Assembly (NCBI GenBank): GCA_965116325.1
Contig: OZ220675.1
Coordinates: forward strand, 833,536-897,535
Direction: 5' to 3'
Source: Dehalococcoidia bacterium
GTDB taxonomy: Bacteria; Chloroflexota; Dehalococcoidia; Lucifugimonadales; JAGWBF01
DNA length: 64,000 bases
This document shows positions 5,574-50,867 of this stretch, one piece after another. The notes below the pieces were generated by a model. It searched no databases and had not been told where the DNA came from. It worked only from the letters and a program-made list of their open reading frames with translations. Both the position numbers and the translations under genes were made by a program. Numbering within the stretch: the first letter of the stretch is position 1; the number at the start of each line of letters is the position of its first letter.

Positions 5574-5654
5574 CTGGCTGGGCCCAGCCAGGAACGGGCT
5601 TCATTGGGGCAGCGCCAAGACCGCCACTTTATTCTCCAGAGAGGACTCCTAAGT

Positions 5655-6167: not shown

Positions 6168-6223
6168 GGACTACCGGCGCCGGGGCTGGCAGGACTCCAG
6201 CACCCGAAAGAAAGGAAGCGAGA

Positions 6224-7063
6224 ATGGCGGACCGCACCAGTGTCGGAGATGTGGAAATCCTCTCTTTCATCGACATGGTCCCCCCACCCTACGACCCGGA
6301 GGGGTTCTTCCCCGACGTGAAACGCAGCCAGTGGCAGCCTTATGAGTCCGACCACCTGGAGAACGGCAACTTGCAGCTCTACTACGGGTGCTTCGCCCTC
6401 CGCTCCAGCGGCCAGACCATCCTGGTGGATACGGGGATGGGGCCCGGGCCCCATCCGACCCGCGGAAACCTGACGGGCCATCTAGTGCCCCTTCTAAGGG
6501 AACAGGGTATCGGGCCCGAGGATGTAAACATTGTCGTGCACACCCACCTGCACCCTGACCATGTGGGCTGGAACGTAACCCAGGAAGACGGGAAGCCCAA
6601 GGCCACCTTCCCCAAAGCCAGGTACCTTGTGCCCCGCAAGGACTGGAGCTACTTCACCCAGGAAGATGTCCTGGCATCGGCCGCCCACGTCCGGGACAAC
6701 GTGGTCCCCCTGCAGGATTTGGGAGCCATGGACATCATCGACGAGGAACACACCATCACCTCCGAGGTCACGACCATACCCACGCCGGGGCACACGCCGG
6801 GCCACCTCAACGTCCTGATCTCTTCAGGCGGGGAGAAAGGCATCCTGGTTGGCGACCTGCTCCACAGCAAGGTACAGGTGCAGGAGCCGGCTTGGTGCTC
6901 CAGGGCGGACATCGACAAGGCCACCGGCCAGCGCAGCCGGGAGGATATGCTGGAGCGCATCGAGCGCGAAGGGATGCTGGTGGCCGCGGGCCACTTCAAA
7001 CCCGACGAGCACTTCGGTCACGTCGTACGCATCCAGGGCAGGCGCTACTGGCAGGTCCTCTAG
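6224..7063 (+). CDS. MBL-fold metallo-hydrolase
   Basis: HxHxDH motif VHTHLHPDHVGWN, later TPGHTPGH and a C-terminal His/Asp ligand region. Confidence 0.85.
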   Translation: MADRTSVGDVEILSFIDMVPPPYDPEGFFPDVKRSQWQPYESDHLENGNLQLYYGCFALRSSGQTILVDTGMGPGPHPTRGNLTGHLVPLLREQGIGPEDVNIVVHTHLHPDHVGWNVTQEDGKPKATFPKARYLVPRKDWSYFTQEDVLASAAHVRDNVVPLQDLGAMDIIDEEHTITSEVTTIPTPGHTPGHLNVLISSGGEKGILVGDLLHSKVQVQEPAWCSRADIDKATGQRSREDMLERIEREGMLVAAGHFKPDEHFGHVVRIQGRRYWQVL

Positions 7064-7081
7064 GGGCCTGGGGCAGGCGAC

Positions 7082-8494: not shown

Positions 8495-8536
8495 TTTCGG
8501 CTCCTTATCTAGGCTAGGCTAGGGCTGGCTGACCGG

Positions 8537-8734
8537 CTAATCTCTGGGAGGGAAATAGGCCGTCGCGGGCTCTACTCCCTCCAGGTCCATATCCCTCAGG
8601 GGCTGCAGGGACGAGACCAAGCCCTTGACGTAGGTGTACAGCTCGTCCATGTGGGCGGTTTCCCCCAAGTCCAGCCCGGCTGCCGCCGCCAGGCGATCGA
8701 AGGTCTCCCGGTCCATTCCTTCCTGTGTTGTCAC
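8537..8734 (-). CDS. GatC-like small protein, probable partner of the adjacent amidase
   Basis: 65 aa. FDRLAAAAGLDL...ELYTYVKGLVSSLQPLRDMDLEGVEPATAYF mirrors the GatC pattern (LA.LARL.L...L..L.E.D..GVEP). Lies 42 nt upstream of the amidase on the same strand. Confidence 0.55.
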   Translation of the reverse strand: MTTQEGMDRETFDRLAAAAGLDLGETAHMDELYTYVKGLVSSLQPLRDMDLEGVEPATAYFPPRD

Positions 8735-8776
8735 GATTAAGACCTCCTCTTGAGAACTCTCTAGTTCCTTCGTCTG

Positions 8777-11070: not shown

Positions 11071-11865
11071 TTACGCCACGCCGGCTTTGACACCCCGGAA
11101 CAGCTCGTCGGCTTCCTCGGCGGTGCCGCCCTCGTGGACGATGTAGCGGATGGCCCGGATCATGGCCACAGGCGCGTCATTCTGCCAGATGTTCCGCCCC
11201 AGGTTCACACCTATGGCGCCCCTGACCATGCCGTCGTGCACAAATTCGAACACCTCCCGCTCTGTGTCCACCTGGGGCCCCCCGGCCATGATGACCGGCA
11301 CGGGACAGCCCTCCACCACCTTTTCGAACTCCTCGCACCAGTAGGTCTTCACCACCTTGGCCCCCAGCTCAGCCGCGATGCGGCAGCACAGGCCCAGGTA
11401 GCGGGCATCCCGCTTCTCCATCTCGCGGCCCACGGCCGTCACCGCCATCACGGGGATGCCGTACCGCTCCCCCTCGCTGACCAGGGAAGACAGGTTCAGG
11501 AGGTTCTCCTTTTCGTAGTCGGACCCGATGAACACCGAAATGCCCACCGCCGATGCGTTCAGGCGGATCGCCTCCTCCATGGGTGTGGTGATGCCCTCGT
11601 TGGCCAGGTCGTTGCCCACCATGCTGGTCCCGCCGGACACGCGCAGGACGATGGGCTTGGCCTTGGCGGGAGGAATGGCGGAGCGGAGGACTCCCCGGGT
11701 CACGAAGACGGCATCGGAGTAGGGCAGCAGGGGTTCCAGGGTCTGCCAGGGGCTCTCCAAGCTCCTGGTGGGTCCCTGGAAATAGCCGTGATCGATGGGC
11801 ATGAACAAGCATCGGCCATCGGAAGGAATCACCTGGGCCAGCCGGTTCTCCATTCCCCAGTCCAT
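11071..11865 (-). CDS. class I aldolase, DhnA/FbaB/LsrF-type (DeoC/LacD superfamily)
   Basis: MPIDHGYFQGP opening and a Schiff-base lysine context AAELGAKVVKTYW, typical of archaeal-type class I FBP aldolase / ADH synthase / LsrF relatives. Confidence 0.85.
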   Translation of the reverse strand: MDWGMENRLAQVIPSDGRCLFMPIDHGYFQGPTRSLESPWQTLEPLLPYSDAVFVTRGVLRSAIPPAKAKPIVLRVSGGTSMVGNDLANEGITTPMEEAIRLNASAVGISVFIGSDYEKENLLNLSSLVSEGERYGIPVMAVTAVGREMEKRDARYLGLCCRIAAELGAKVVKTYWCEEFEKVVEGCPVPVIMAGGPQVDTEREVFEFVHDGMVRGAIGVNLGRNIWQNDAPVAMIRAIRYIVHEGGTAEEADELFRGVKAGVA

Positions 11866-11964
11866 CGGTGCAGCACCCCCTGTCTGTGATATGGGCCAAG
11901 TATATCAGCAGGCCCAAGGTGTGTCTTGGTGCCTTCCCCTCCCTTGACTGGAGAGGGCTGGAGT

Positions 11965-12091
11965 GAGGGTGACACCCCTCATCCTAACCTTCTCCCACCA
12001 GGGGCAATTTCTTCCCCCCTCCCTCGAGGGAGGGGATTCAGGGGAGGGTGTAACCCCCCTCATCCTAACCTTCTCCCACCAGGGGAGAAGG
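11965..12091. repeat. intergenic repeat/palindrome cluster
   Basis: Two copies of GAGGGTG(N3-5)CCCCTCATCCTAACCTTCTCCCACCAGGGG (11965-12004, 12044-12085). They flank a perfect 20-bp palindrome CCCCTCCCTCGAGGGAGGGG (12016-12035). The second copy closes into the CCTTCTCC/GGAGAAGG hairpin. Confidence 0.7.
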
Positions 12092-12097
12092 CATTTG

Positions 12098-12853
12098 CTA
12101 CCCGGACGGCAGCGTGAACTCCACCACCATGCCCGGCGCCAGCTCCAGCTCGGCGGCGAGTCCGGCGTTGACCTCCACAGCGTACTGGGCGGGTGAAGTG
12201 GAGCGGTATAGCGTGAGCTGGCCGGTGGGAACTCCTGGCTGGGGGTGCATGGTGTGGATGTTGACGATGCGGCGCTCCTGGTCCAGGAACATGATGTCCA
12301 AGGGTATCAGGGTCTCTTTCATCCAGAAGGACAATGTGGACTCCTGGGAGAAGACGAAGAGCATCCCGCCGTCGGGGGACAGAGATTCGCGGTTGGAGAG
12401 CCCGCGACTACGCTCCTGGGGGGTTATGGCCAGCTCCAGGATGAAGGTCTCCCCGGCGATGATGGCCTGCACCGAGCCCTCGGGAATTGGGGTCGGAGTG
12501 GGAACAGGCGTGTCGGTAGGTTCAGCCGTGGGCGTGTTCGTTGGAACGGCTGTGGGCACAGTTGTGGGCGTCGGCACGGGGGTCGGTGAGGGAATCAACG
12601 TGGCCGTGGGCGTCGGGGTCGCTGTGGGGGCATACGTGGGCGTAGCCGAGGGAGTTGCCACGGGAGTCGGAGCATCTGTGGGCAGAGGGGTTGGCGTAGG
12701 AGTAGCAGGAATGGGGTGAGCTGTCTCTGTCGAAGGGAGCGAAACCCCCGTAGGGTCTTCGACATCCATGGCGCCATGCCCACAGGCTGCGACAACGACG
12801 ACCACTGCCATCGCCAAAGCGAGGCTGGCAAGAGAGCGCATCAGCCTAGGCAA
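12098..12853 (-). CDS. DUF192 domain protein with signal peptide and Pro/Thr-rich linker
   Basis: C-terminal [30 protein letters not shown]...YAVEVNAG matches the DUF192 pattern. N-terminal [24 protein letters not shown] is lipoprotein-like, followed by PTPTP repeats. Confidence 0.8.
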
Positions 12854-38204: not shown

Positions 38205-39095
38205 ATGAGCGAGCGTTTCTCGGGTGTTCACTGGATGCTGGCGACACCCTTCGATGAAGACGAAAACGTGGACCCTTCCTCCATCGTACGGCTGATGGAC
38301 AAGGCCGAAAGCTCGGGGTGCAGCGGTGTGGTCTGCCTGGGCGTCACCGGCGAGGCTGCGCGCATGACTGACGACGAGCGGCGACTGGTCGCCTCCCAGG
38401 TCATCGAGCACTCAAATGGAATGCCGGTAACAGTTGGCACAACGGCTGCCAGCACCAAGGCCTGCATAACCTACAGCCAGGAGGCCGAGAAGCTGGGAGC
38501 TGCCGCCGTCATGGTCGCCGCGCCAGCCATGGCAAAGTCAAATGTGGATGTGCTGTTCAACCACTTCCAGCGGGTAGCCGAGTCGGTGAACATACCCGTG
38601 GTGATGCAGGACTATCCCCAGGCCTCGGGCGTTCAGATGCCAACCGGCTTCATCGCCAGGGTCGGGCAGGAGATCCCCAACGTTCAGTACTTGAAGCTGG
38701 AGGACCCGCCGACCCCCAACAAGATCACCGCCATACGGAAACTGATCGAGGACAGGCTCACCATATTCGGAGGCCTGGGCGGGGTGTTCCTGCTGGACGA
38801 GCTGTCCCGGGGTTCCGTCGGCGCCATGACCGGGTTCGCTTACCCCGAGGTTCTGGTGGAGATATGCACCAACATGCGGGAGGGTGGCAGGGCCGCCGCC
38901 GAGCCTGTGTTCAACCGCTACCTGCCCATGCTGCTGTTCGAGTACCAGGAGGGTATAGGACTGGGCATCCGCAAGCACGCGCTGCATCACCGGGGGCTGA
39001 TAAGCAGCCCGAGGGTCCGGTACCCGGGGTCCGAGCCTACCGAAGAGATCCGCCAGGAGTTCCTGGACCTCATCCGCGACATCGACTACAACTAG
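38205..39095 (+). CDS. dihydrodipicolinate synthase / N-acetylneuraminate lyase family protein
   Basis: GVVCLGVTGEAARMTDDER, PVTVGTTA, a Y..P..-like block and LKLED (Schiff-base Lys region). Confidence 0.85.
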   Translation: MSERFSGVHWMLATPFDEDENVDPSSIVRLMDKAESSGCSGVVCLGVTGEAARMTDDERRLVASQVIEHSNGMPVTVGTTAASTKACITYSQEAEKLGAAAVMVAAPAMAKSNVDVLFNHFQRVAESVNIPVVMQDYPQASGVQMPTGFIARVGQEIPNVQYLKLEDPPTPNKITAIRKLIEDRLTIFGGLGGVFLLDELSRGSVGAMTGFAYPEVLVEICTNMREGGRAAAEPVFNRYLPMLLFEYQEGIGLGIRKHALHHRGLISSPRVRYPGSEPTEEIRQEFLDLIRDIDYN

Positions 39096-39117
39096 AGGGC
39101 AGCCTCTTTACGGCAGC

Positions 39118-39771
39118 CTAAGGCTCGCTGCGGTCCCAACCCTCCAGCACCCAATATCCTTCCCTGGGAAGCTCCACCTTCACCTCCAGGCCCTGGGCGC
39201 GCTTGAGTCTCTGCACGTTGTACAGGTGGGTCAGCTTCTCGAACCACATATGACGGAAGGTGTACTCCAGGTCGATTAGCGCCCGCTCAGGGTTGTCGGG
39301 GTCTATACGGCGCCCGGTGGGGTGGGACTCAGCCATCAGCTTGGCCTGGGCATCGTTGTTCCAGGGAAGCTCCACAGCCCTCATGGAGGCAAGGGTCTGC
39401 CCTGCCAGGATGCTCCGGCACATGTCCATGCTGTCCTTGAGCTTGCCCAGGATTGATTCCATGGTGGGATATTTCGTTTCGTCCAGCCATCGCCCTTCGG
39501 AGGCCATTATCTCGTCGGTGCCCTCGGGCAGGTCCAGCCCGGCCCCCAGGTCTAAATGGGCCCAGCGGCGGAGGAGCCACCGGAACCCCATGGAGGCAAC
39601 GTGGCTGACGTTGGTGCGGATGCTCCACTCGCTCCAAGCCCAGCGGTCGGAGGTATAGTCAAGCTGGGCGTCGGTGAGCCCTGCAACCTCGGCGGAGACC
39701 ATATCGTGGTAGAGGCCATACTGGGGAAACAGGACGTTCCCAGGGGTGTCATCTCGCATCGACTGGGTCAT
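39118..39771 (-). CDS. DinB/YfiT-like four-helix-bundle protein
   Basis: AEVAGLTDAQLDY...WSIRTNVSHV pattern and size fit the DinB_2 superfamily. Weak call. Confidence 0.45.
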   Translation of the reverse strand: MTQSMRDDTPGNVLFPQYGLYHDMVSAEVAGLTDAQLDYTSDRWAWSEWSIRTNVSHVASMGFRWLLRRWAHLDLGAGLDLPEGTDEIMASEGRWLDETKYPTMESILGKLKDSMDMCRSILAGQTLASMRAVELPWNNDAQAKLMAESHPTGRRIDPDNPERALIDLEYTFRHMWFEKLTHLYNVQRLKRAQGLEVKVELPREGYWVLEGWDRSEP

Positions 39772-39816
39772 TGCTGGTCTCCTTGGTGCTGGATTGAGTG
39801 ATTTGATATGCGGGCG

Positions 39817-41031
39817 TCAGTGAATGGCACCGGCGGGGGCCGCAGCCCTCTCATTGACCAACCGGCCCTCGGCAAACCTGGTGATGGAGAAGGGGGCTAT
39901 CTGTTCGGGCATCTTGCCCGTGGCGATAAGCTCGGCCATGCGCTTTCCGGCTACCGGGGCAGCCTTGAAACCCCAAGTCCCCCAGCCGCAGGTAACCAGG
40001 AAGCCGCGGATGCCGGGCACCTCGCCCATGATGGGAGAGTAGTCCGGCGTCATGTCGCACAAGCCCGTCCATTGCCGGAGAATATTGACGTCTCTCAGGC
40101 ACGGGAACAGGCCCAGGGCGTGCTTGGCCAGCTCCTCGGCTGCCGGCAGGGTGGAACCCTGGCTGTAGGTGGGATAGGGATCGACCCCTCCCCCGATTAC
40201 CACCTCTCCCCGGTCTGTCTGGTACACATAGACATGGAGATTGGCGGAGGACACCGAGACATCCAGGAAAGGCTTGAGAGGCTCCGTGACGAAGGCCTGG
40301 AGGGGGTGGGTAGTGATGGGCAGCAGGACATCCACCATGGCCGCCACCGTCGAACACCAGCCTGCGGTGGCGTTCAGCACCACGCCGGCCTTTACGTCCC
40401 CAAGGTTAGTGCGGACACCCGTGACCTGGTCGCCTGTGCGGTCGATACCCAGCACTTCGCTGCGGGTGTGGATTTCGGCCCCCGCCTCATCCACAGCCCG
40501 CGCCAGCCCCCACACGACGGCGTCGTGGCGGATCACTCCTGACGGCGGGTGGTGCATGGCCGCCAGTATGGGCAGGTCTTTGCCAGCCCGGAGGTCGATG
40601 GCCGGCGCCAGTTTCTTGATCTGCTCAGGGCCGACCAGGGTGCTGTCCACCCCCAGGGCCCGGTTGAACTCGGTGCGCATCCGCAAGCCGAACACCGCCG
40701 ATTCGGTGTGGCCCAGGTCCAGGCGGCCCATCTGGTTGAACAGCAAGTTGAAGCCAAGCTGCTGGGACAGGGTCTCGTAGATGCCCAGGCTCTCGGAAAA
40801 GAAGGGTATTCCCTGGGGGGTCAGGTAGTTGGAGCGAAGAATTGCGGTGGTGCGCCCGCTGCCCCCGCCTCCCAGGTAACCCCTGTCCAGCAGGGCCACG
40901 TTGGTGATCCCATGCTTGGCCAGGTAGTAGGCGGTGGACAGGCCGTGCACTCCTGCGCCAATGATCACGACATCGTAGCTGTCCTTCAGGGGGCGCTTCC
41001 GCCACATCTTCTTCTTGCTGAACAACTGCAT
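39817..41031 (-). CDS. soxB: sarcosine oxidase beta-subunit family FAD oxidoreductase (N-methylglutamate dehydrogenase subunit by context)
   Basis: YDVVIIGAGVHGLSTAYYLAK dinucleotide fold, with DAO-family blocks throughout. The ATG at 41031 overlaps the upstream stop (TGATG). Confidence 0.88.
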   Translation of the reverse strand: MQLFSKKKMWRKRPLKDSYDVVIIGAGVHGLSTAYYLAKHGITNVALLDRGYLGGGGSGRTTAILRSNYLTPQGIPFFSESLGIYETLSQQLGFNLLFNQMGRLDLGHTESAVFGLRMRTEFNRALGVDSTLVGPEQIKKLAPAIDLRAGKDLPILAAMHHPPSGVIRHDAVVWGLARAVDEAGAEIHTRSEVLGIDRTGDQVTGVRTNLGDVKAGVVLNATAGWCSTVAAMVDVLLPITTHPLQAFVTEPLKPFLDVSVSSANLHVYVYQTDRGEVVIGGGVDPYPTYSQGSTLPAAEELAKHALGLFPCLRDVNILRQWTGLCDMTPDYSPIMGEVPGIRGFLVTCGWGTWGFKAAPVAGKRMAELIATGKMPEQIAPFSITRFAEGRLVNERAAAPAGAIH

Positions 41032-41789
41032 CAGCCTGGGACTCCCCCGATCAACCGGCGGTGGGCTTCCACCCCTACCGCCACCAGGCCGTACTCCTCC
41101 CCCACCTCCCACAGCACCTCCCACACATAGACGCCGTACTCCCGCGCCACGTACAGGTTGTATCCGGGTTCACCCCTGTCCCAGCGGACGAGCACCCCGT
41201 GAACCTCGGCGAACTGACCCTGGACACACGTCAGGTTGGGCGTTTCGTCGGGGTGCAGGTCCAGGTCCGTCACTTTGCTTAGAAGGTCCGAAGACCTGGG
41301 CCCCGCTATGTTGATGCCCGCATAGCACGACGTGACGTCCAAGACGATAGCCTGGTTGTCATTCCCGTCCCCTGGCTTTTCGGTGTTCAGCGCACCTGCC
41401 AGATCATCCCGGCGCTCCGGAGGGCAGGTCACAAACAGCTCCTGGGGCGTCAGGCAGCACACAGCCACCGGGAATGTTTCTCCATTGGCTGACTCTTGGG
41501 TTCCGGCCTGCGCCTTTCCCACCTGCAGCTCCCCAGCTTCCCCTATGAGCATCCGGGCCAGGGTCGCCGCCCCAGGGCCCTGCAGCAGCAGCTTCCCTGC
41601 GGGGCTGATATCGGAAATGCCGACGGACCCCTTAACTCCATCCATCTCCTTTTCGACGGAGGTGTAATGGGAGGGACGCAGCCAACCCGAACGCTCCTCC
41701 ATGGTTGCCCCCAGCTTCAGGTGCTCATGGTGCATGGTGGTGAGCTTCAGCGGCTCCCATATGCCGTTGGAGTTGTTCTTCTGCGCCAT
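41031..41789 (-). CDS. soxG: sarcosine oxidase gamma-subunit family protein
   Basis: GcvT-like small subunit pattern (HLKLGATMEERSGWLRP...ISPAGKLLLQGPGA). Positioned between the alpha and beta subunits. Confidence 0.75.
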   Translation of the reverse strand: MAQKNNSNGIWEPLKLTTMHHEHLKLGATMEERSGWLRPSHYTSVEKEMDGVKGSVGISDISPAGKLLLQGPGAATLARMLIGEAGELQVGKAQAGTQESANGETFPVAVCCLTPQELFVTCPPERRDDLAGALNTEKPGDGNDNQAIVLDVTSCYAGINIAGPRSSDLLSKVTDLDLHPDETPNLTCVQGQFAEVHGVLVRWDRGEPGYNLYVAREYGVYVWEVLWEVGEEYGLVAVGVEAHRRLIGGVPG

Positions 41790-41794
41790 TTGAC

Positions 41795-44698
41795 CTACTC
41801 CCTCAACCGCGCGCCTTCAGGATCGTAGAAAGCCTCGTGGACCACCCTGGCCGGACGGGAATTGTCCCGCACCCGGATGGTGATCTGAGTCCCCTCTTCG
41901 GAGAGTTCCACGGGAACCCAAGCTAGTCCGAAACCCCTTCCGGTTGTTGGGTCCGCCCGGGAGCTGGTGACCCTCCCCACGGGCTGGCCCAAGTGCATGA
42001 CCGGCACCCCGTCCTCGGGCACCACTGCCTCTTCCATGACGAACCCCACCAGCATCTCGCGCAGGCCGCGCTCCTGGATACTTTCCAGGGCATGCTTGCC
42101 AATGAAATCGTCCTTGTCCAAGCGCACCACCCAGGGCAGGTCCCCCTCCAGGGGGTTGGACACCATGTCGGTGTCCTGGCCCAGGATCATGTGTTTCTTG
42201 GCCAGCCTGAGCACACGCTGGGCCTCCACCCCGAAGGGAGCGATTCCGAATTCGCTCCCGGCGTCCATCATGGCGTCCCACATGTGCTCGCTGTACTCGG
42301 CGGGGAAGTGCATCTCCCAGCCGGTCTCACCCACAAAACCGATCCTCAGGAAGAGACAAGGCACGCCCGCAACCTCACCCTGAACGCTGCGCATGTAGCG
42401 GAAAGCTTCGGGCGAGAGGTCCACGTCCGTCAGCTTGGACAGCGTGTCACGGGCCTTGGGCCCTGCAACGTTAATGGCACCGTAGCCGGAGGTAACGTTG
42501 TTGACGTAGACATTTGCTCCCCAGCCTGCGTTCCACCATTTAAGCCACTCCTCCATAAGGTCGACGTTGGCTGTCGTTGTGGTGATGAAGTAGTGGCTGT
42601 CCGCCAAGCGGGTGATGGTGCCGTCATCGATGATGGAGCCGTTGTCCGAGCACAAGAGGCTGTAGCGGATCCGGCCCACGGGCAAATTGGAAAACCTGTG
42701 GGTATAGACCCTGTCCAGCAGGCCAGGAGCGTCGGGGCCCTGGACGTCGATCTTCCCCAAAGTGCTGACGTCGATGATTCCCACCCGCTCCCGGACGGCG
42801 GCTATCTCCTCCGACACCGGGCCGTAGGAGTGGGGCCTCTTCCATGGCCCCACGTCGGCCATCGCTCCTCCGAGCTCGATGTGCCTTTCGTGGAGGGCCG
42901 TCCGCTTCACAGGCATGTGCAGGGGGCCTGCCAGGGTGCCCAATGTCAGAGGCCTCAAGGGCGGCCTGGATGTGGTCGAGCCGGTCTCGTCCATGGTCCG
43001 TCCGGTGTAACGGGAGCAGAGCTCAATGGCTGGCCTCAGGCACATCTTGCCCTGGCACGGTCCCATGGACAGGGTGCTGTACCGCTTGAGAGTCTGCATT
43101 TCGTCGAAGCCCTCGTCGATAGCCTGGTACAGGTCCTTGGGCGTGACATCCTCGCAGAGGCAGACGAATGTCTTGCCCGCCGTCTTTGGGGAATCATTAG
43201 GAGGAGTTGTTGGCTGAAGGCCCTCCCGGTAGGCTTGTTCCTTTGATGCTATGGTTCCCCGCAGAGCTTCCAGGTCACGACCGGTGGGCTTGTCCACACC
43301 CGAAGCGGCCTCACAGCCCGCCGCTCTACCCTGCATCAGGGACAGCTCCAGGTCGTGGATTCCCGTAACCTCGCCCGCCACATAGATGGTCGAAGGCAGA
43401 TCCGCCGGGACGATCTCTCCCAGGCCGGCGTCGTAGGTCAGCGTCGCCGAGGTCTGAGCCAGCAGCCCCGTGTTGGGTTCGTAAGCCCCTGTGACGACGA
43501 TGCTCTCGCAGGTGATGCGCCTGCTTTCGCCAGTAGCACTGTCGAGGACCAGGGCTCCCTTAACACCCTTGGTTCCCGAAGCGCCTGCGATAACGTGATT
43601 CTCAAAGACTGGAATGCCATTGGCTACGTCACTGCCTGCAGGGGACTCCCTCCCATCGACAATGCCCACAACCTGGACTCCCGCCTGTGCCATCTCAGCG
43701 GCCAGCCGGTATCCTCGTTGGTCGCTGGCGACCACCAGCGCCCTTCCCTTCGGGGCAACGCCGTACAGGTGCATCAGCCGGCAGACAGCCTCTCCCATGT
43801 ACACCCCGGGCAGGTCGTTGCCGGGGAACATCCGGGGCACCTCGCGGCAGCCAGTGGCAACGACGATCGCCTTGCTGCGTATCTTGTACAGGCGCTTTCC
43901 CTGGGACACACCCAGCAGGTTGCCCGGATACAGCCCGAAGGCGCCGGCCCCCGAAAGCACCCTGATGTTGCTCGCACCATGGACCTGTTCGGCCAGCCGG
44001 GCGGCCACTTCGTACCCCGGCAGGCCAGCATATTCTTCGGGCTCAGCATGGACCGATATGTCCGACAGCAGGTGGCCCCCCAGCTCCGGCCCTTCGTCGA
44101 TGAGCACAACGCGGGCCCCGCCTCTGGCTGCCTCCAGGGCAGCCGACAGACCGGCAGGACCGCCGCCGACCACAGCAACGTCGGTCCACAGGGTGTGGTG
44201 CTGATGTTCGTTGTCCGGCTCCTTGTCGGGGCCGACCTTGCCCAAGCCCGCCACCCGGCGTATGAAAGGCCTGGCCATATCCCAGCTTATCCGGGGGCGG
44301 ATCAGGCTCTTGTAGTAGAAGCCAACGGGCATTAACCGGTCCAGCCTGTCCATCACCGACAGCGCATCATGCTCGGCGGAAGGCCAGGCGTTCTGGGTCT
44401 GAACCTCCATACCCGGCTGCACCGGCGTTGTGCAGGTGCGGACATTGGGCACCCCGTCCACGTTCATCAGGCAGTTGGGACAATCGCCGGTCATGCACAT
44501 CAGGCCCCGGGGCCGGTGGTACTTGAAGCTGCGGCTGAATATGCGGACGCCCGAGGAGTACAGGGCTGAGCCTATTGTGTCGCCCTCCAGGGCTGAGACC
44601 TGCTTCTCATTGAAGGTGAAAGTGACCGGCGATGAAGGGTTGGTCCTCTGGGAGGGATGGGGAGGCAGCCTGTTCTGTGCGGAAGCTGGATCAGCCAT
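41795..44698 (-). CDS. soxA: sarcosine oxidase alpha-subunit family protein
   Basis: N-terminal 2Fe-2S-like FKYHRPRGLMCMTGDCPNCLMNVDGVPNVRTC, VAVVGGGPAGLSAA, and a C-terminal aminomethyltransferase (GcvT) fold. ATG at 44698 preferred over the listed extension. Confidence 0.9.
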   Translation of the reverse strand: MADPASAQNRLPPHPSQRTNPSSPVTFTFNEKQVSALEGDTIGSALYSSGVRIFSRSFKYHRPRGLMCMTGDCPNCLMNVDGVPNVRTCTTPVQPGMEVQTQNAWPSAEHDALSVMDRLDRLMPVGFYYKSLIRPRISWDMARPFIRRVAGLGKVGPDKEPDNEHQHHTLWTDVAVVGGGPAGLSAALEAARGGARVVLIDEGPELGGHLLSDISVHAEPEEYAGLPGYEVAARLAEQVHGASNIRVLSGAGAFGLYPGNLLGVSQGKRLYKIRSKAIVVATGCREVPRMFPGNDLPGVYMGEAVCRLMHLYGVAPKGRALVVASDQRGYRLAAEMAQAGVQVVGIVDGRESPAGSDVANGIPVFENHVIAGASGTKGVKGALVLDSATGESRRITCESIVVTGAYEPNTGLLAQTSATLTYDAGLGEIVPADLPSTIYVAGEVTGIHDLELSLMQGRAAGCEAASGVDKPTGRDLEALRGTIASKEQAYREGLQPTTPPNDSPKTAGKTFVCLCEDVTPKDLYQAIDEGFDEMQTLKRYSTLSMGPCQGKMCLRPAIELCSRYTGRTMDETGSTTSRPPLRPLTLGTLAGPLHMPVKRTALHERHIELGGAMADVGPWKRPHSYGPVSEEIAAVRERVGIIDVSTLGKIDVQGPDAPGLLDRVYTHRFSNLPVGRIRYSLLCSDNGSIIDDGTITRLADSHYFITTTTANVDLMEEWLKWWNAGWGANVYVNNVTSGYGAINVAGPKARDTLSKLTDVDLSPEAFRYMRSVQGEVAGVPCLFLRIGFVGETGWEMHFPAEYSEHMWDAMMDAGSEFGIAPFGVEAQRVLRLAKKHMILGQDTDMVSNPLEGDLPWVVRLDKDDFIGKHALESIQERGLREMLVGFVMEEAVVPEDGVPVMHLGQPVGRVTSSRADPTTGRGFGLAWVPVELSEEGTQITIRVRDNSRPARVVHEAFYDPEGARLRE

Positions 44699-44703
44699 CT
44701 GTC

Positions 44704-44997
44704 CTATCCCCCACTGGCGCCGTCGCCGGCAGACCGGTCGTTCCGTTCGCTGGGCCAATAGGTTTGCGGTACCTCGTTGGTGCGGGAGTCCCTGACTGCC
44801 AGGAACCACTGCCGGCACCCGAACTTGTGGTACCACCACTCCTGGCGCTCCCCCGAAACGTTCTTCCGGAAGTAGTAGTAGTTGACCCACTGGGCGTGGG
44901 GAGCGTCCTTGTTAGGGCGGGAGTTGGTCTCTCCACCAAAGCGGAAATCGGCAACGCTTCGTTCGCCGCAGTTGGGGCACTTCAGGAGGAAGGACAA
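44704..44997 (-). CDS. soxD: sarcosine oxidase delta-subunit family protein
   Basis: MSFLLKCPNCGERSVADFRFGGE...WWYHKFGCRQWF is the SoxD zinc-finger pattern. Confidence 0.85.
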   Translation of the reverse strand: MSFLLKCPNCGERSVADFRFGGETNSRPNKDAPHAQWVNYYYFRKNVSGERQEWWYHKFGCRQWFLAVRDSRTNEVPQTYWPSERNDRSAGDGASGG

Positions 44998-45066
44998 AGG
45001 GACTCCTCACTCATTTCGTGGAAAGGGTTCTGGACTACCGGGGGTGTGCATCAGGGCCGCCGTTCC

Positions 45067-46428
45067 TTAGAAGAGGGTCAGGTATCGGTCCACCTCCCAG
45101 GCGGATACCTGGCGGTGGTAGTCCTTCCACTCCTGGCGTTTCAGCTGGACGAAGTCCGGAGCCATGGCCCCCAGGGACCCCAGCACAACCTCGTCCTCCT
45201 CCAGCTCATCCAGGGCTTCGCCCAAGCTCTGGGGGAATAACCTGATCCCCCGTCGTTGGATCTCCTCCAGCCCCAGGTCGTACAGGTTGCCAAGGTTCGG
45301 CTCACCCGGCTCCAGCTCCCGGGCAATGCCATCCAGCCCTGCCGCAACATAGCCGGACAACACCAAGTACGGATTGCAGCCCGCCGAGATGGTGCGGTCT
45401 TCCAGGTGGCCCGGTCCTGCGGTGCGAATCATCTGGGTACGATTATTGTCGCCGTAGGACACGAAGGCGGGTGTCCAGATGAAGCCCGAGGCTGAACTTC
45501 TCAGCGAAGCAGCACCAACCTGAAGGCGCTTGTAGCAGTTGACTGTGGGAGAGTTTATGGCGCACAGCGCGGGGGCATGGTCCAGGATCCCGCCGATGAA
45601 GTTGTAGGCAAGCCGGGACAGGCCCAGTCCCCTTGGGTCGCTCTCATCCAGGAAAACGTTCACGCCCGAGTTAGCATCGGCCAGATGGTAGTGTATGTGT
45701 GCCCCGCTGCCCGTGCGGTCGGTGAAGGGCTTGGGCATGTGGGTGGCGATGGCGCCGTACTTCTGGGCTACCACCCCGGTCATCATTTTGAAGAAGGTGT
45801 ACCTGTCGGCGGTGGTCAGCGCATCCGAGTAGGTGAAGTTAATCTCGTACTGGCCGTTGGCATCCTCGTGGTCCGACTGGTAGCTCTCCCATCCCAGGGC
45901 GTTCAAGCCGTCCATCATCTCCCGCAGGTAGCCCATGGCCCCCGATATGCCCTTGTAGTCGTAGCAGGCCTTGTCGAGGCTGTCCACGTTGTTGGGGTCC
46001 CATATCTCGATAGAGCCATCGGCCTTGCGGGTAACCAGGAAATGCTCCGGCTCCAGCCCCACGTTGAAGACGTAGCCGGCGTCCCGCGCCTTTGCCAGGG
46101 CCTGCTTCAAGTTGGTGCGGGGGCAGTGGTCGTGGGGCACATCATCGACGAACAGGTCGCTGGCAAAGCGGGCAACGTCATCGCTCCAGGGCAGAGGCGT
46201 ATACGTATCGAGGTCGATGCGGGCCAGCATATCGTGGGAGTGAGGGCCCTGGCCCATGCCCCACAGGGCGCCTCCGGCAAACCCCGCGCCCGTGTCTATC
46301 ACATCATCGAAGGAACTGACCGGCACCATCTTGACCTTGGCCGCCCCGTGCATATCAACGAACTGGGTCAGGATGTACCTGATCCCGTCCTGCTGCATCT
46401 GCCTTCTTACGCTCTCTCGGTCCGCCAT
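45067..46428 (-). CDS. gmaS: glutamine synthetase family protein (gamma-glutamylmethylamide synthetase by context)
   Basis: GS catalytic-domain blocks (FNVGLEPEHFL, GSGAHIHYHL, NCYKRL). Located between the sox-like and glutamate-synthase-like genes. Confidence 0.75.
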   Translation of the reverse strand: MADRESVRRQMQQDGIRYILTQFVDMHGAAKVKMVPVSSFDDVIDTGAGFAGGALWGMGQGPHSHDMLARIDLDTYTPLPWSDDVARFASDLFVDDVPHDHCPRTNLKQALAKARDAGYVFNVGLEPEHFLVTRKADGSIEIWDPNNVDSLDKACYDYKGISGAMGYLREMMDGLNALGWESYQSDHEDANGQYEINFTYSDALTTADRYTFFKMMTGVVAQKYGAIATHMPKPFTDRTGSGAHIHYHLADANSGVNVFLDESDPRGLGLSRLAYNFIGGILDHAPALCAINSPTVNCYKRLQVGAASLRSSASGFIWTPAFVSYGDNNRTQMIRTAGPGHLEDRTISAGCNPYLVLSGYVAAGLDGIARELEPGEPNLGNLYDLGLEEIQRRGIRLFPQSLGEALDELEEDEVVLGSLGAMAPDFVQLKRQEWKDYHRQVSAWEVDRYLTLF

Positions 46429-46469
46429 CCTTTTAGCACCTTTCGTTGGCTAGTGCCTGGGGGTTTGGA

Positions 46470-47771
46470 CTAAGTCCCGAACACCTTGTTGGTGCCGGCC
46501 AGGGGTATCTGCGCCATAGTCGAGGCTTCGATGGTCAGGGCCGCCATATCCTCGGGCTCCAGGCTGCGCACATCGCCCTTGCCCAGGGAACGGGTCAGCA
46601 GGGCCAGCTCCATGGTCATGGAGTTCAGAAAGTTGGCAACCCTCTCGGCCCCCTCGTCGGGGTCCAGCCTGGCTTCCAGCGCCGGGTCCTGGGTGGCAAT
46701 GCCCACGGGACAAAGGCCCGTGTGGCAGCGGTTGCAGTAGCCTGCCTTTACCCCGATCTCCTCTTCGAAGTTGGTGCCGGGAATCTCCTTGTTGCAGTTC
46801 AGGGCGATGAGGGCTGCTATGCCGATGGCCACGGCGTCGGCGCCCAGGGCCAGCGCCTTTGCAACGTCGGCGCCGTTTCTTATGCCCCCAGAAGCCACCA
46901 GTGAAACCTGGCCGTAAAGGCCCAGCTCCCGCAGGGCTTCCCTGGCCTGCACTATGGCTGGCACCGTGGGGATGCCGCTGTGGTCCAGGAGTATCTCGGC
47001 GGAGGCGCCCGTTCCGGCCACCATGCTGTCTATAACGATGGTGTCCGCTCCTGCCTTGGCAGCCAGTTTGACGTCGTCGGCCACCCGGCAGGCCCCCAAC
47101 TTCACGCTGATGGGCAGCCTTCCCTCGGTGGCCTCCCGTATCTGCTCGATCTTTATACTGAGGTCGTCGGGCCCCAGCCAGTCGGGATGGCGGGTCGGGC
47201 TGCGCTGGTCGATGCCCAGGGGCAGCTCCCGCATCTCCGCGATGTTGTCGGCAACCTTGACCCCCATGAGCAGGCCCCCGGTGCCCGGCTTGGCCCCCTG
47301 CCCAACCACGATCTCGGCGGCGTTGGCTCCAATCAGGTGATGGGGGTCGAAACCATATCGGCTGGGAAGCACCTGGTAGATCAGCTTGTTGGAGGCGTCC
47401 CGCTCATCCTGGAGCATCCCGCCGTCGCCGGTGCAGGTTGCGGTCCCGACCAGGGAGGCCGCCTTGCCCAAAGCCACCTTGGCGTTGCGGGAGAGGGCCC
47501 CGTAGCTCATGCCCGTGATGTATATGGGGGTGTCGAGCACCAGGGGTTCCGAGGCATAGCGGCTGCCGAGGACCACCTGGGTGTTGCACTTCTCCTTGTA
47601 GCCCTCCAGGGGAAAGCGGGTGAGGCCCGTTGACAGGAACACCAGGTCGTCGAAGTGGGTGACCTTCTGGAAGGTGCTGAATCCCCGAATCCTGTAGCGC
47701 CCCAGCTCAGCCTTGGCGTGGATATCATCTATGTGGTGGGTGGCCCAAATGTGGCTGCTGCCCAGTACCAT
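46470..47771 (-). CDS. mgsC: FMN-binding glutamate synthase-domain protein (N-methylglutamate synthase subunit C by context)
   Basis: GltB FMN-domain blocks GMSYGALS, GEG-like GDGG, QGAKPGTGG, DSMVAGTGAS and LVASGGIRNGADVAKALALGADAV. Confidence 0.8.
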   Translation of the reverse strand: MVLGSSHIWATHHIDDIHAKAELGRYRIRGFSTFQKVTHFDDLVFLSTGLTRFPLEGYKEKCNTQVVLGSRYASEPLVLDTPIYITGMSYGALSRNAKVALGKAASLVGTATCTGDGGMLQDERDASNKLIYQVLPSRYGFDPHHLIGANAAEIVVGQGAKPGTGGLLMGVKVADNIAEMRELPLGIDQRSPTRHPDWLGPDDLSIKIEQIREATEGRLPISVKLGACRVADDVKLAAKAGADTIVIDSMVAGTGASAEILLDHSGIPTVPAIVQAREALRELGLYGQVSLVASGGIRNGADVAKALALGADAVAIGIAALIALNCNKEIPGTNFEEEIGVKAGYCNRCHTGLCPVGIATQDPALEARLDPDEGAERVANFLNSMTMELALLTRSLGKGDVRSLEPEDMAALTIEASTMAQIPLAGTNKVFGT

Positions 47772-47786
47772 AGGGCTTGACTCCTC

Positions 47787-48473
47787 CTATACCGCGCGCT
47801 TCTCCAAGCGCTCCAGGGAATCGAAATGGTACAGCTTCTTGGCCGACACTATCTTGGTGTACTTCTTGCGGTCGTGGATGCCGTAGCGCTCCATGGTCTC
47901 CCAGACCTGGATCAGCTCGCTCTCGGACGCCTCTTCGATCTTGGCGTCGCTGCCGAGAGAGCCGATCTCCCCACCCACGTAGATGGTGCCCTCGTACATG
48001 GAGTCGCCCACACCCTCACCCACGTCGCCGCCGATGATGATGGTGCCCCGCTGCATCATGAAACCCGTCATGAAGCCGGCGTCTCCCCCGATAGCGAGGG
48101 TGCCCCCCTTCATGCCGATGCCCGCCCGGGCGCCTGCGTTGCCCCCCACGAACACCTCGCCTCCCCGCATGGAGGAGCCCAGGGAAGCGCCGGCGTTCCT
48201 ACTAAGCACCACCTTGCCCTTCATCAAGTTCTCGCCCAAGGCCCACCCGGCGTTGCCGTTGATGGTTACCTCGGGTCCGTCCATTAGGCTGGCGGCGTAG
48301 TAGCCAACGCTGCCTTCGATGGTGATGCTGCAGGTGTCCAGCAGGCCGACGGCAATGTTGTGCCTGGCCTGGGGGTTCAGTATGCGGATATGCTCGGTGC
48401 CCTGGGCTGCCAGCTCCCGCAGCTTCCGGTTCAGCTCGGTTGTGGTCAGGGCGGAGGCGTCTAGATCAACCAA
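47787..48473 (-). CDS. mgsB: GXGXG-motif glutamate synthase domain-3-like protein (N-methylglutamate synthase subunit B by context)
   Basis: Repeated beta-helix GxxGxxxG units (GNAGWALGENLMKGKVV, GGNAGARAGIGMKGG, GGDAGFMTGFMMQRG). Confidence 0.8.
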   Translation of the reverse strand: MVDLDASALTTTELNRKLRELAAQGTEHIRILNPQARHNIAVGLLDTCSITIEGSVGYYAASLMDGPEVTINGNAGWALGENLMKGKVVLSRNAGASLGSSMRGGEVFVGGNAGARAGIGMKGGTLAIGGDAGFMTGFMMQRGTIIIGGDVGEGVGDSMYEGTIYVGGEIGSLGSDAKIEEASESELIQVWETMERYGIHDRKKYTKIVSAKKLYHFDSLERLEKRAV

Positions 48474-49375
48474 GTCTTGACGTCACCTTCCTGGGGTTCG
48501 GCTCGGTCGATCTCGTTGGGGAAGATGCGCCTGAGGGCGATCTCCTCCGAGGCAATGGCTACCACATCGTCGTTTTCCGTCGCCACCATGGGCTTGGCCG
48601 ACCACCGGTCCTTGGCGTAGCCGATGCCGTCTTCGGTGGAAGCTACGAAGGTAAACGTCCCGTCCAGGTCATCCACAGCCGAGTTGAGGGCATCGTCCAG
48701 CTTCATGCCCTTGTACATCTTGTCGGCGAGGTAAACAGCTATCAGCTCCGAGTCGTTTTCGGTCTGAAAGGTGTAGCCCTCATCCTCGTACTTCCGGGTC
48801 AGCTTGTGGTAGTTGGTGAGCTGGCCGTTGTGCACCACGGACACATCGGGGAAGGGATATGCCCAGAAGGGGTGGGAGTGGTTGATGTCCACCCGGCTTT
48901 CTGTCGCCATGCGGACGTGACCGATGCCGTGGGTGCCCTTGATGCCGTCGATGCTGTGCTTGCCGTCCATGTCGCAGGCCGTGCCGACATCCTTGATGAT
49001 CTCCGAGTTCCTGCCGATGCTGTGGAGGTGCATGCCTCGCAGCTTCAGGATAGCCTCGGCCAGGCGCCCAACATCGCCGCCGTACCGTATCTCGGTCCTC
49101 AGGTAGCTACCCGTGAGGGCGCTGGCTACCACCGAGCCGCCATGCTCGGAGACGATGTCCTGTACGCGGCCCATCTGGGCCTCGGCGTCCTGGTCGCCCT
49201 CGTACCAAAGCCTGATGATGTAGTCGGCGGGGAACTCCTCGCCGCAGATGGTCACGCCGCTGGAGTCGATGCCCCGGTGGGCCAATGAGTCCAGCATAGC
49301 AACCAGCTCCCGCCCGACGGGAGCGAGACCCTCGGAGCCAGCGTTCTTATGCACAATCGCGCTAATGCCACACAT
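48461..49375 (-). CDS. mgsA: class II (Ntn) glutamine amidotransferase (N-methylglutamate synthase subunit A by context)
   Basis: MCGI N-terminal nucleophile Cys, with GltB/PurF-type amidotransferase blocks (HVRMATES, HNGQLTN). Confidence 0.8.
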   Translation of the reverse strand: MCGISAIVHKNAGSEGLAPVGRELVAMLDSLAHRGIDSSGVTICGEEFPADYIIRLWYEGDQDAEAQMGRVQDIVSEHGGSVVASALTGSYLRTEIRYGGDVGRLAEAILKLRGMHLHSIGRNSEIIKDVGTACDMDGKHSIDGIKGTHGIGHVRMATESRVDINHSHPFWAYPFPDVSVVHNGQLTNYHKLTRKYEDEGYTFQTENDSELIAVYLADKMYKGMKLDDALNSAVDDLDGTFTFVASTEDGIGYAKDRWSAKPMVATENDDVVAIASEEIALRRIFPNEIDRAEPQEGDVKTWLI

Positions 49376-49485
49376 GCGGTATCGCCATCCTCACCAAAAA
49401 TGACTTCCCGAATATATCACTACGCCCCATGTCGGGCAACCCACAGCGCGAGGGATACAGGGGGAGCTTCTCCCGTCCACCTTGA

Positions 49486-49603
49486 GGAAATCCGCTCGCC
49501 TTGGGGAAATCCGCTCGCCTTGGGGAAATCCGTTCGCCACGATGAAATCCCATTCGCCTTGAAGAAGTCCGTTCGCCCTGAGGGAAATCGAAGGGGAACG
49601 GAC
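49486..49603. repeat. degenerate 19-20-bp tandem array ending in a palindromic hairpin-A module
   Basis: Units GGAAATCCGCTCGCCTTGG x2 (49486-49523), GGAAATCCGTTCGCCACGA, TGAAATCCCATTCGCCTTGA and AGAAGTCCGTTCGCCCTGAG. The inverted partner GGAAATCGAAGGGGAACGGAC follows. The final 37 nt are the reverse complement of 10882-10918 with 1 mismatch. Confidence 0.8.
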
Positions 49604-49638
49604 AGTGCGGTGTCTGCCTCTCCGGGATTGAACGGATG

Positions 49639-49995
49639 CTAGTACAAGATCATCTGGGTGGGTACCAAGCGCTGGGCCTCCGGGTCCACCGCTAGGGCCA
49701 AACCCTCCAGGGTGTAGGCCCCCAGCAGTGGAGGGGCCTCGTCCTGCCCGAAGACCACGATTGTAACGACGCTCTCCCCGCCTATCGTGGCCCACGCCTG
49801 CCCGTAGGACATCTCGACCCGTCGACCGTCGGCAACCAGGAATCCGCGTTTGCCGGTCGCTTCGATGCCCATATCCCGCAGTAGGCTTGAAGGCAACGTG
49901 GTGAACGAAACGCCAGTGTCAACCGTCGCCTCAAGGTCCCGGCTCTGTTGACCAGCCATGCTGGAGATGCGCAACGGCCACTCAAAAGTCCTCAT
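49639..49995 (-). CDS. retropepsin-like (clan AA) single-lobe aspartic protease
   Basis: LEATVDTGVSFTTLP (D-T-G active-site motif), about 118 aa from the ATG at 49995. The listed longer form would overlap the tRNA-Leu gene. Confidence 0.6.
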   Translation of the reverse strand: MRTFEWPLRISSMAGQQSRDLEATVDTGVSFTTLPSSLLRDMGIEATGKRGFLVADGRRVEMSYGQAWATIGGESVVTIVVFGQDEAPPLLGAYTLEGLALAVDPEAQRLVPTQMILY

Positions 49996-50059
49996 GGCGG
50001 GCACCTCTATGAATAGGTCTCTGCTGTTCGATCTTACGAGAAATGGACAGGTTCTTGTG

Positions 50060-50145
50060 TGGTGCCGAAGGTCGGAGTCGAACCGACACGGGGTTGCCCC
50101 CAACGGTTTTTGAGACCGTCGCGTCTACCATTCCGCCACTTCGGC
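50060..50145 (-). tRNA. tRNA-Leu (anticodon CAA), CCA encoded
   Basis: Reverse complement folds as GCCGAAG/CTTCGGC acceptor, D arm GCG-GAATGGTAGA-CGC, anticodon stem ACGGT/ACCGT with loop CUCAAAA, long variable arm TGGGGGCAACCCCGT, T arm GTCGG-TTCGACT-CCGAC, and A-CCA. Confidence 0.9.
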
Positions 50146-50345
50146 CCAAAGGGAGTCCATGGGGTGGTTGCCCCAGCGATATTCTACCATGCTACCCCCA
50201 AATTCGAGGGAAGGCCGGCTCTTTCAGATAGTTTTGGAGCAAATGCATGCCCGTTCGGCTAGATATGACACAGATGGTTGCCGTCCCATTCGCCACGGGT
50301 TAGACTGGCACACGCAGTCCGATTCTCTCCCAAGGAGCTTCCCCC

Positions 50346-50867
50346 ATGTCCCAGGTCTCTTTCATCGCCGAGTCCCTCGCCAATCTCCAGAGCTCCATCG
50401 ACGAAGCTATGAAGGGGCTTACCGACGAGCAGGCCCACTACCAGGGCGGCAACGACTCTAACCATATCGCCTTTGTGGCGTGGCACTACGCTCGCACCGT
50501 CGACAACATCATCCGGTTCGTCCTGCAGCGGAAGCCGACTATCTGGATGGAGGGGAAGTGGGACGAGCGGTTCGGGCTGGACTCCAAGGCCCAGGGCACC
50601 GGGATGACCCGGGAGGAGGCCTCGGCCCTGCGCATCTCCGACCTGGCAGCCTTTGAGGAGTACATGTCACTGGTCTGGCAGGACACCAGGGATTACATGG
50701 GGACCATCAGCGAGGATGACCTGGCCCAAGAGATGACCATACGTCCCCTGGGAGAGATGACTTTGGGCCATGTGCTGGGCACTGTGCTGCTGACCCACGG
50801 CTACACCCACCTGGGGGAGATCTACACGCTGAAGGGCGTCCAAGGCCTGGCGGGCAGCCCTATCTAA
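50346..50867 (+). CDS. DinB family protein
   Basis: LTDEQAHYQ...NHIAFVAWHYARTVD...LLTHGYTHLGEI: the His triad pattern of the DinB superfamily. Confidence 0.7.
   Translation: MSQVSFIAESLANLQSSIDEAMKGLTDEQAHYQGGNDSNHIAFVAWHYARTVDNIIRFVLQRKPTIWMEGKWDERFGLDSKAQGTGMTREEASALRISDLAAFEEYMSLVWQDTRDYMGTISEDDLAQEMTIRPLGEMTLGHVLGTVLLTHGYTHLGEIYTLKGVQGLAGSPI

Follow-up and report, generated by a model that had tools for sequence, protein, structure and literature searches.

Introduction

In the sea, methylamine is a nitrogen and carbon compound of relevance to climate, and gmaS serves as its marker gene. One route of methylamine use is the N-methylglutamate pathway; to our knowledge, the physiological electron acceptor of one of its enzymes, N-methylglutamate dehydrogenase, is unsettled. 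The pathway is encoded by gmaS, mgsABC and mgdABCD, and its classical hosts are Methyloversatilis universalis, Methylorubrum extorquens, Methylocella silvestris and Pseudomonas sp. C5pp (PMC7948447, PMC5023235). The nearest systems with solved structures are the heterotetrameric sarcosine oxidases SoxBDAG of Corynebacterium sp. U-96 (PDB 1vrq, 1x31 and 3ad7) and Stenotrophomonas maltophilia (2gag), and the L-proline dehydrogenase PDH1 of Pyrococcus horikoshii (1y56). The window analyzed here is a 64,000-nucleotide stretch from the 2.37 Mb single-contig genome of a Dehalococcoidia bacterium, and it carries at positions 39817-49375 eight co-oriented, tightly packed minus-strand genes in the order mgsA-mgsB-mgsC-gmaS-delta-alpha-gamma-beta. 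The same eight families are united in one cluster in the N-methylglutamate pathway of the Pseudomonadota, and we assign a probability of about 80% to the reading that the window cluster is an operon for using methylamine by the N-methylglutamate route. Unlike the classical hosts, its host belongs to the Chloroflexota. Functional statements made below, including those on substrates, cofactor binding, the electron acceptor and a role as nitrogen and energy source, are inferred from sequence, phylogeny and co-inheritance.

The pathway as such is known and has reached the textbooks; what is new is a rearranged variant of the dehydrogenase that retains iron-sulfur (Fe-S) sites and is conserved across a taxonomic order of abundant marine bacteria. 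Within the literature that could be searched, no paper was found that ties SAR202, Dehalococcoidia or Chloroflexota to gmaS or the N-methylglutamate pathway, and none on Fe-S sites in N-methylglutamate dehydrogenase. Papers on SAR202 give “sarcosine oxidase” under choline degradation (PMC5395668, PMC6306507), and a sponge metatranscriptome paper contains an ambiguous Pfam signal for “methylamine degradation,” which is ascribed there to the glutamine synthetase (GS)-glutamate synthase cycle (GS-GOGAT) (PMC8826442).

The Ligase and the Synthase

The product of gmaS passes the NCBIfam model TIGR03105, “type III glutamate--ammonia ligase” (553.7 bits; cut-off, 469.6), and stays under the cut-off of the GlnA type I model (292.9 bits; cut-off, 429). 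Its best matches among solved structures are the GMAS of Methylovorus mays (MmGMAS; PDB 9qur, E 1e-135) and the GmaS of Rhodovulum (RhGmaS; 7cql, E 1e-91), followed by glutamine synthetase structures at E 1e-71 or weaker. In a tree of 84 sequences, a split with 100% support divides GmaS from GS and also separates the ligase from the GlnA of the same genome. The ligase is placed between RhGmaS, the deepest branch, and the MmGMAS clade, and thus inside the bracket of characterized GmaS enzymes, within a Dehalococcoidia clade (95% support) whose sister consists of Planctomycetota sequences.

The residues of RhGmaS that serve in catalysis or bind ATP, glutamate, Mg and methylamine are known from its structure (PMC7948447), and all 17 of the 17 active-site residues checked are identical in the ligase. 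Those that distinguish GmaS comprise K30', A48' in place of the ammonium-binding Asp50', Y147, Q175, D177, N188, and, where the flap Glu would stand, W300; K30', Y147, Q175, D177, E179, E186, N188, W300, and R312 match those of RhGmaS and MmGMAS. By contrast, the discriminating positions are occupied by D, H, D and so on in the GS structure PDB 7tdp and in the GlnA of the genome. As judged from its sequence, by family score, tree and residues alike, the ligase is a GmaS. The phylogenetic check that the earlier note proposed for this GS-like protein, against GmaS and GlnA, has therefore come out on the GmaS side, with the ammonium-site Asp50' lost.

A second GS-like gene of the genome (C1:1326319-1327626; 33–37% identical) has GS-type residues. 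It lies about 2.5 kb from a second gene with a Glu_synthase domain (28% identical; both within C1:1326319-1331258), and the latter, being close to glnA, may represent an archaeal-type split glutamate synthase.

Three split proteins are encoded beside gmaS, namely an N-terminal nucleophile (Ntn) protein with an N-terminal Cys, a GXGXG protein, and a protein with a flavin mononucleotide (FMN) domain, which is the arrangement by which MgsABC is recognized. The Cys2 of MgsA is invariant across 69 homologs. MgsA is 58–61% identical to its Dehalococcoidia relatives and 31–36% identical to gmaS-linked genes of the Pseudomonadota (31–42% for MgsA and MgsB taken together), and MgsC is 54–57% identical to the gmaS-linked MgsC of other phyla; these Mgs comparisons (31–57% identity) were made with gmaS-linked homologs of Pseudomonas and other taxa from 80 loci, none of them from Methyloversatilis or Methylorubrum. 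The mgsABC triplet adjoins gmaS in most of the fetched loci of sufficient length. In MgsC, the residues C326, C346, C349, and C354 are invariant in the lineage and are found in about 57% of the gmaS-linked MgsC of other phyla, the remainder having D, Y, W, and D; N-methylglutamate synthase may exist in Fe-S and non-Fe-S forms.

A Dehydrogenase with Predicted Iron-Sulfur Sites

The alpha subunit is composed of an N-terminal Fer2_4 domain, a Rossmann dinucleotide site, a BFD-like domain and a C-terminal GcvT-like folate domain. The Fer2_4 domain (111.9 bits) contains the motif C68-x4-C73-x2-C76-x12-C89, and the BFD-like domain (Fer2_BFD, 27 bits; cut-off, 26) contains C513-x-C515-x32-C548-x4-C553. 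The eight Cys recur without exception in 13 of 13 gmaS-linked alphas of this type and are missing from 33 gmaS-linked alphas of other phyla, the classical Mgd type, as well as from seven true sarcosine oxidase (Sox) alphas of the same taxonomic order; six further Cys of the window alpha are not conserved. Three of the four N-terminal Cys align with the ligands of the [2Fe-2S] cluster N1b of complex I, the first being shifted, and all four BFD-type Cys align with those of PH1363 of the Pyrococcus proline dehydrogenase, the first two (CxC) also with Bfd. In solved SoxA, the eight positions are occupied by S/G/T, E, A, and T (N-terminal) and by D, Q, D, and G (BFD-type). Alpha thus appears to retain two complete Cys4 sites of the [2Fe-2S] type, for which cluster binding is predicted, and the dehydrogenase probably uses these sites to pass the electrons of its flavins to an acceptor that is not O2.

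The likeness to PDH1 extends to the beta subunit, a homolog of PH1364 (E 2e-48). Further Fe-S-containing relatives of the family are HcnABC, opine oxidase and D-hydroxyproline dehydrogenase. However, PDH1 and these relatives lack a fused GcvT domain, a delta and a gamma subunit, and act on proline, glycine or opines, whereas Fer2_4, the dinucleotide (NAD/FAD) site, BFD and GcvT are fused in one SoxA-like chain in the window alpha.

With SoxBDAG, the window enzyme shares the four subunits, the conserved His169 of beta, the Zn-type site of delta, and the GcvT-like folate domain and Rossmann site of alpha. His169 aligns with the histidine that we take to be the carrier of covalent FMN in Corynebacterium SoxB. 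Nevertheless, gene order and context differ from those of SoxBDAG, and all four subunits score under the cut-offs of the NCBIfam Sox models TIGR01372-01375: alpha reaches 754 bits (cut-off, 1164), beta 405 (529), delta 80.6 (116.5), and gamma 36.8 (144). In the beta tree, the true SoxB clade (100/100) unites PDB 1vrq_B and 2gag_B, the second sets of Pseudomonadota (including Pseudomonas) and the second, canonical-order sets of Dehalococcoidia; the window beta is excluded from it and belongs to a clade of gmaS-linked Dehalococcoidia betas (100/100). In Pseudomonas, Vreelandella and Neptunomonas genomes, a gmaS-linked beta (48–51% identical) likewise occurs together with a second beta (40–44%). 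Three histidines of the window beta, His161, His188, and His304, are common to gmaS-linked betas of other phyla, including those of Pseudomonadota, and replaced by Q, I/V, and A/S in all Sox sets, which suggests an affinity of the window beta with gmaS-linked betas.

On the other hand, the enzyme differs from classical MgdABCD in more than its gene order, which is delta-alpha-gamma-beta instead of beta-delta-alpha-gamma, and its Cys4 motifs. The delta subunit keeps the Zn-type site Cys7, Cys10, His57, and Cys61, as does true SoxD, whereas 31 of 33 classical gmaS-linked deltas have N and S at two of these four positions. The gamma subunit is similar to the N-terminal part of GcvT and paralogous to the C-terminal domain of alpha; its matches to GcvT and to the alpha C-terminus (E 1e-14 to 1e-12) are much stronger than that to SoxG (E 0.006). 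Gammas of this type match GCV_T strongly (88–116 bits, the window gamma at 116). Those of true Sox sets fit SoxG instead (102 bits), and the classical Mgd gammas checked are weak to either family (about 18 bits). From these sequence comparisons, the dehydrogenase is assigned to a separate, third group of iron-sulfur type that is neither classical MgdABCD nor sarcosine oxidase. The earlier note had equated the sox-like subunits with Mgd: the distinction from SoxB is upheld by the tree, but the sox-like subunits do not appear to fall within the classical Mgd group of the Proteobacteria either.

The branching among the three groups (Fe-S type, classical Mgd and Sox) was followed with two roots, the DAO paralog of the genome (branch length 10) and PH1364 (8.5). 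Both outgroup branches are too long for the order of the three groups to be read from them. The deep nodes that join the groups have bootstraps of 46–64; because this branching is weak, the substrate of the dehydrogenase rests on linkage and co-inheritance.

The dehydrogenase might be taken for an ordinary heterotetrameric sarcosine oxidase of choline or betaine breakdown, lying next to ordinary GS-GOGAT genes for ammonia assimilation. Such alphas bear the label “sarcosine oxidase subunit alpha” at JGI, sarcosine oxidase is named in papers on SAR202 and sponge Chloroflexi (PMC5395668, PMC6306507), and the identity of the window beta to solved SoxB, as read off the alignment, is about 45% (E 5e-97). 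We nevertheless consider this very improbable, because beta falls outside the SoxB clade and all four subunits stay under the Sox cut-offs. Moreover, relatives possess a separate true Sox set in canonical order, the ligase lacks the ammonium site while the genome has a separate GS-type enzyme, the Glt-like genes encode three split proteins and not GltBD, and the GmaS, MgsC and beta families are inherited as one module (see below). The Fe-S-type dehydrogenase is mislabeled in databases as sarcosine oxidase, the source databases giving these alphas as “sarcosine oxidase subunit alpha” (JGI) or “FAD-dependent oxidoreductase.”

A search of alpha against 1.84 billion representative proteins yielded 3010 matches at E<=1e-30. 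Among the best 150 clusters, which were inspected, 27 have all eight Cys, 104 have none, and eight have the four BFD-type Cys but not the N-terminal four (six of these are N-terminally truncated). One contig with such an alpha, from outside the Dehalococcoidia set (L116:4160-15835), encodes mgsA-mgsB-mgsC, a second Glu_synthase gene, a GS-like gene, delta, alpha, a GCV_T gamma and beta, directly followed by purU (ACT and Formyl_trans_N). It is probably archaeal, as the predicted products of its neighbors, a tRNA-intron endonuclease, IF-2B and a Cas12f1-like TNB, suggest. On a Planctomycete-like contig (L115), delta-alpha-gamma is present, with beta, a GS-like gene, mgsA and mgsB nearby. Distant eight-Cys alphas (35–37% identical) stand in beta-delta-alpha-gamma order at three other loci (L112:6720-22883, L113 and L114), next to LysR, CMD, a thiamine pyrophosphate enzyme, a cupin, a class III aminotransferase and an SBP_bac_5 ATP-binding cassette transporter of the peptide/opine type; gmaS or mgs genes were not found at these three loci. 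The sets in question probably represent a sox-like Fe-S enzyme that acts on a different N-alkyl compound. Since the Fe-S type is thus wider than the methylamine context, the substrate at the window locus is assigned by linkage.

Distribution, Co-inheritance and Conserved Gene Order

Co-inheritance was surveyed in 201 genomes of the order. GmaS is present in 77 of these, MgsC in 76, and a high-identity beta in 77; all three occur together in 75 genomes and none of them in 123. Every MgsC-positive genome is also GmaS-positive, and of the 78 genomes in which at least one of the three genes occurs, 75 have the full set. The three exceptions are incomplete assemblies (71–87% complete): beta is missing in G067 and mgsC in G112, and in G089 beta occurs alone. 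Consequently, a complete, co-inherited methylamine pathway would be present in about 38% of the sampled genomes of this SAR202-type Dehalococcoidia order. In the window genome, the heterotetramer set is present in a single copy. The betas of the order fall into two classes: one is 58–100% identical to the window beta and is usually located no more than a few kb from gmaS, and the other is 40–46% identical, occurs in 32 genomes, and stands in canonical beta-delta-alpha-gamma order in eight of eight fetched loci. As the gmaS-linked type (77 genomes) outnumbers true Sox (32), metabolic reconstructions and marker-gene surveys may misassign function.

The association of ligase, synthase and dehydrogenase also bears on the idea of a biosynthetic cluster in which gamma-glutamylmethylamide or N-methylglutamate is made as a storage compound, osmolyte or signal. 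The ligase and synthase steps are indeed synthetic reactions, and N-methylated amino acids occur in marine invertebrate holobionts. The idea is the least probable of those considered, as an oxidizing, demethylating four-subunit enzyme is co-inherited with ligase and synthase in the 75 of 78 genomes and the purU linkage in L116 indicates one-carbon oxidation.

Outside the order, GmaS is rare. A sample of 400 genomes of the phylum contains just 16 other genomes with GmaS (47–56% identical), none of which belongs to another order of the class; accordingly, the trait is typical of this order and not of the Chloroflexota overall. In genus g186, which belongs to another class of the phylum, GmaS (e.g., G350:C1:1908340-1909656) is 47–48% identical, near the distance of Pseudomonadota (47–51%), which suggests a separate acquisition. 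The closest named homologs come from Dehalococcoidia metagenome-assembled genomes and one SAR202 single-cell genome.

The order mgsABC-gmaS-delta-alpha-gamma-beta was found in eight of 12 fetched Dehalococcoidia loci (L003-L007, L009, L011, and L013), although mgsA and mgsB were not detected in L011 and some of the eight bear insertions. Two further loci, L008 and L021, end at contig ends and show the gmaS-delta-alpha-gamma-beta portion. The order delta-alpha-gamma-beta is present in all 10 Dehalococcoidia loci with these genes, as well as in L016, where gmaS comes first, and in L116. By contrast, beta-delta-alpha-gamma is the arrangement of all gmaS-linked sets of Planctomycetota (L014), Pseudomonadota, Cyanobacteriota, Acidobacteriota and other groups. 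The departure from the usual gene order to which the earlier note had drawn attention is therefore real, and it is a conserved hallmark of the Fe-S-type group, not an accident of this genome.

The interruptions of the cluster in relatives lie at the mgsB/mgsC, mgsC/gmaS, gmaS/delta or delta/alpha junctions (L006:9072-9971; L007:9049-10017 and 11387-12196; L009:1813-3985 and 5591-9004; L011:6209-9625; L013:11396-14169). The inserted open reading frames (ORFs) were considered as pathway genes and rejected: their N-termini resemble toxin-antitoxin (HicB-, MazF/PemK-like) and Mrr-like proteins, an AAA ATPase and an ADP-ribosylglycohydrolase, and they appear to be selfish insertions. Single in-frame stops were seen in two relatives, a TGA in beta of G122 (C1:2864718-2865917) and a TAG in mgsC of G037 (C7:12102-13403); these may reflect a pseudogene or an error in sequencing, and the TGA could also encode selenocysteine.

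Proposed Route and Its Alternatives

In the proposed route, methylamine would enter the cell, probably via the single AmtB of the genome, which came to light in the search for amtB that the earlier note had suggested. GmaS would then join it to glutamate at the expense of ATP, giving gamma-glutamylmethylamide, and the three-protein complex MgsABC, as homology and linkage suggest, would convert this to N-methylglutamate. The delta-alpha-gamma-beta flavoenzyme would oxidize N-methylglutamate to glutamate, with the methyl carbon presumably transferred to tetrahydrofolate (THF) at the GcvT-like domain of alpha. FolD and formate-THF ligase (Fhs), genes for both of which are found in the genome, would carry the one-carbon unit onward to formate. 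The two Fe-S sites may pass the flavin electrons to NAD+, at the Rossmann site of alpha, or to a respiratory or ferredoxin-type acceptor. The claim of the earlier note that the cluster is an N-methylglutamate-pathway system is supported by the tree and residues of GmaS, the placement of beta, and co-inheritance.

Several observations weigh against this assignment. In the beta tree, the deep nodes of which are weak, the dehydrogenase does not appear within the classical Mgd group, and its four subunits score under the Sox cut-offs while NCBIfam offers no Mgd model for comparison. The distant eight-Cys alphas occur outside a gmaS context, so that the Fe-S type is not specific to N-methylglutamate, and some families of the order have their dehydrogenase genes far away from gmaS. 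Furthermore, a full-length trimethylamine N-oxide (TMAO) demethylase was not found in the genome, the search giving only partial matches through GcvT domains; the source of methylamine would thus be external, and a role of the cluster within a full chain from trimethylamine to methylamine is ruled out. Finally, GmaS is promiscuous in vitro, and another small amine is possible as the substrate (PMC7948447).

This last point leads to an alternative in which the same enzyme chain acts on ethylamine, another primary alkylamine or a dimethylamine-derived intermediate, with the ligase forming a gamma-glutamyl-alkylamide and the Fe-S enzyme oxidizing another N-alkylglutamate. In vitro, the amines that RhGmaS takes include ethylamine, propylamine and hydroxylamine (PMC7948447), the dehydrogenase group is separate from classical Mgd, and MgsA and MgsB are rather distant from their gmaS-linked counterparts in Pseudomonadota (31–42% identity). 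Nonetheless, the alternative seems unlikely, given that the methylamine-pocket residues of RhGmaS are all identical in the ligase, that the ligase lies within the crown group of two enzymes characterized with methylamine, and that the C-terminal GcvT domain of alpha, like purU in L116, fits the release of one carbon and not of an aldehyde with two or more carbons. The N-methylglutamate route thus remains the preferred reading of the locus.

It is tempting to go further and to speculate that the locus encodes an oxygen-independent Fe-S N-methylglutamate dehydrogenase, ancestral to Sox and to classical Mgd, both of which lost the clusters, and that SAR202-type Dehalococcoidia, some Planctomycetota and probably some archaea are unrecognized marine methylamine sinks; this combined proposal is tentative, and we regard it as somewhat less probable than its negation. 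A natural version of the enzyme with two conserved Fe-S sites would offer a testable handle on the electron acceptor and on the evolution of the sarcosine-oxidase family.

Gene Models and Neighborhood

The gene models of the cluster and of adjoining features are listed in Table 1. The eight co-oriented genes and their order agree with the description in the earlier note, the outer coordinates of which are exact, and two ORF starts were corrected. Alpha, which the ORF list begins at 44890 (1031 aa), is over-extended, and its likely start is the ATG at 44698, 5 nt past the delta stop; beta, listed from 41124 (435 aa), is likewise over-extended, and its likely ATG at 41031 overlaps the gamma stop codon. 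Spacing within the cluster ranges from -13 to 69 nt. The promoter-like match upstream of mgsA is the only one in 38900-50400; it is a consensus match and a putative promoter.

Table 1. Coordinates (window positions) of the cluster genes and adjoining features.
Feature	Position	Strand	Description
mgsA-like	48461..49375	-	304 aa; N-terminal Met-Cys; class II (Ntn) amidotransferase-like, GATase_6/7
mgsB-like	47787..48473	-	228 aa; GXGXG beta-helix, PF01493 68.7 bits; TTG start overlapping mgsA end
mgsC-like	46470..47771	-	433 aa; FMN Glu_synthase domain, PF01645 314 bits
gmaS	45067..46428	-	453 aa; Gln-synt_C 290 bits, TIGR03105 553.7 bits
delta subunit	44704..44997	-	97 aa; SoxD family; TTG start, GAGGAG ribosome-binding site
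alpha subunit	41795..44698	-	967 aa; Fer2_4, Pyr_redox_2, SO_alpha_A3/Fer2_BFD, GCV_T, GCV_T_C
gamma subunit	41031..41789	-	252 aa; GCV_T 116 bits, SoxG 23.8 bits
beta subunit	39817..41031	-	404 aa; flavin adenine dinucleotide (FAD), DAO family 246 bits
DinB_2-family gene	39118..39771	-	45 nt downstream of beta, co-oriented
sigma-70-like promoter match	49411..49439	-	TTGCCC-17-TATATT with TG; 36-64 nt upstream of mgsA start codon

The genes that flank the cluster are unrelated to it (DinB_2, DHDPS-family, isochorismatase, nitroreductase and trehalose-phosphate synthase). The DinB_2 gene after beta was considered as a ninth member and dropped, as it is without a counterpart beside the cluster in relatives; it is probably a neighbor outside the system. 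A second DinB_2-family gene lies upstream of the cluster on the opposite strand (50346-50867) and is likewise not kept beside the cluster in relatives.

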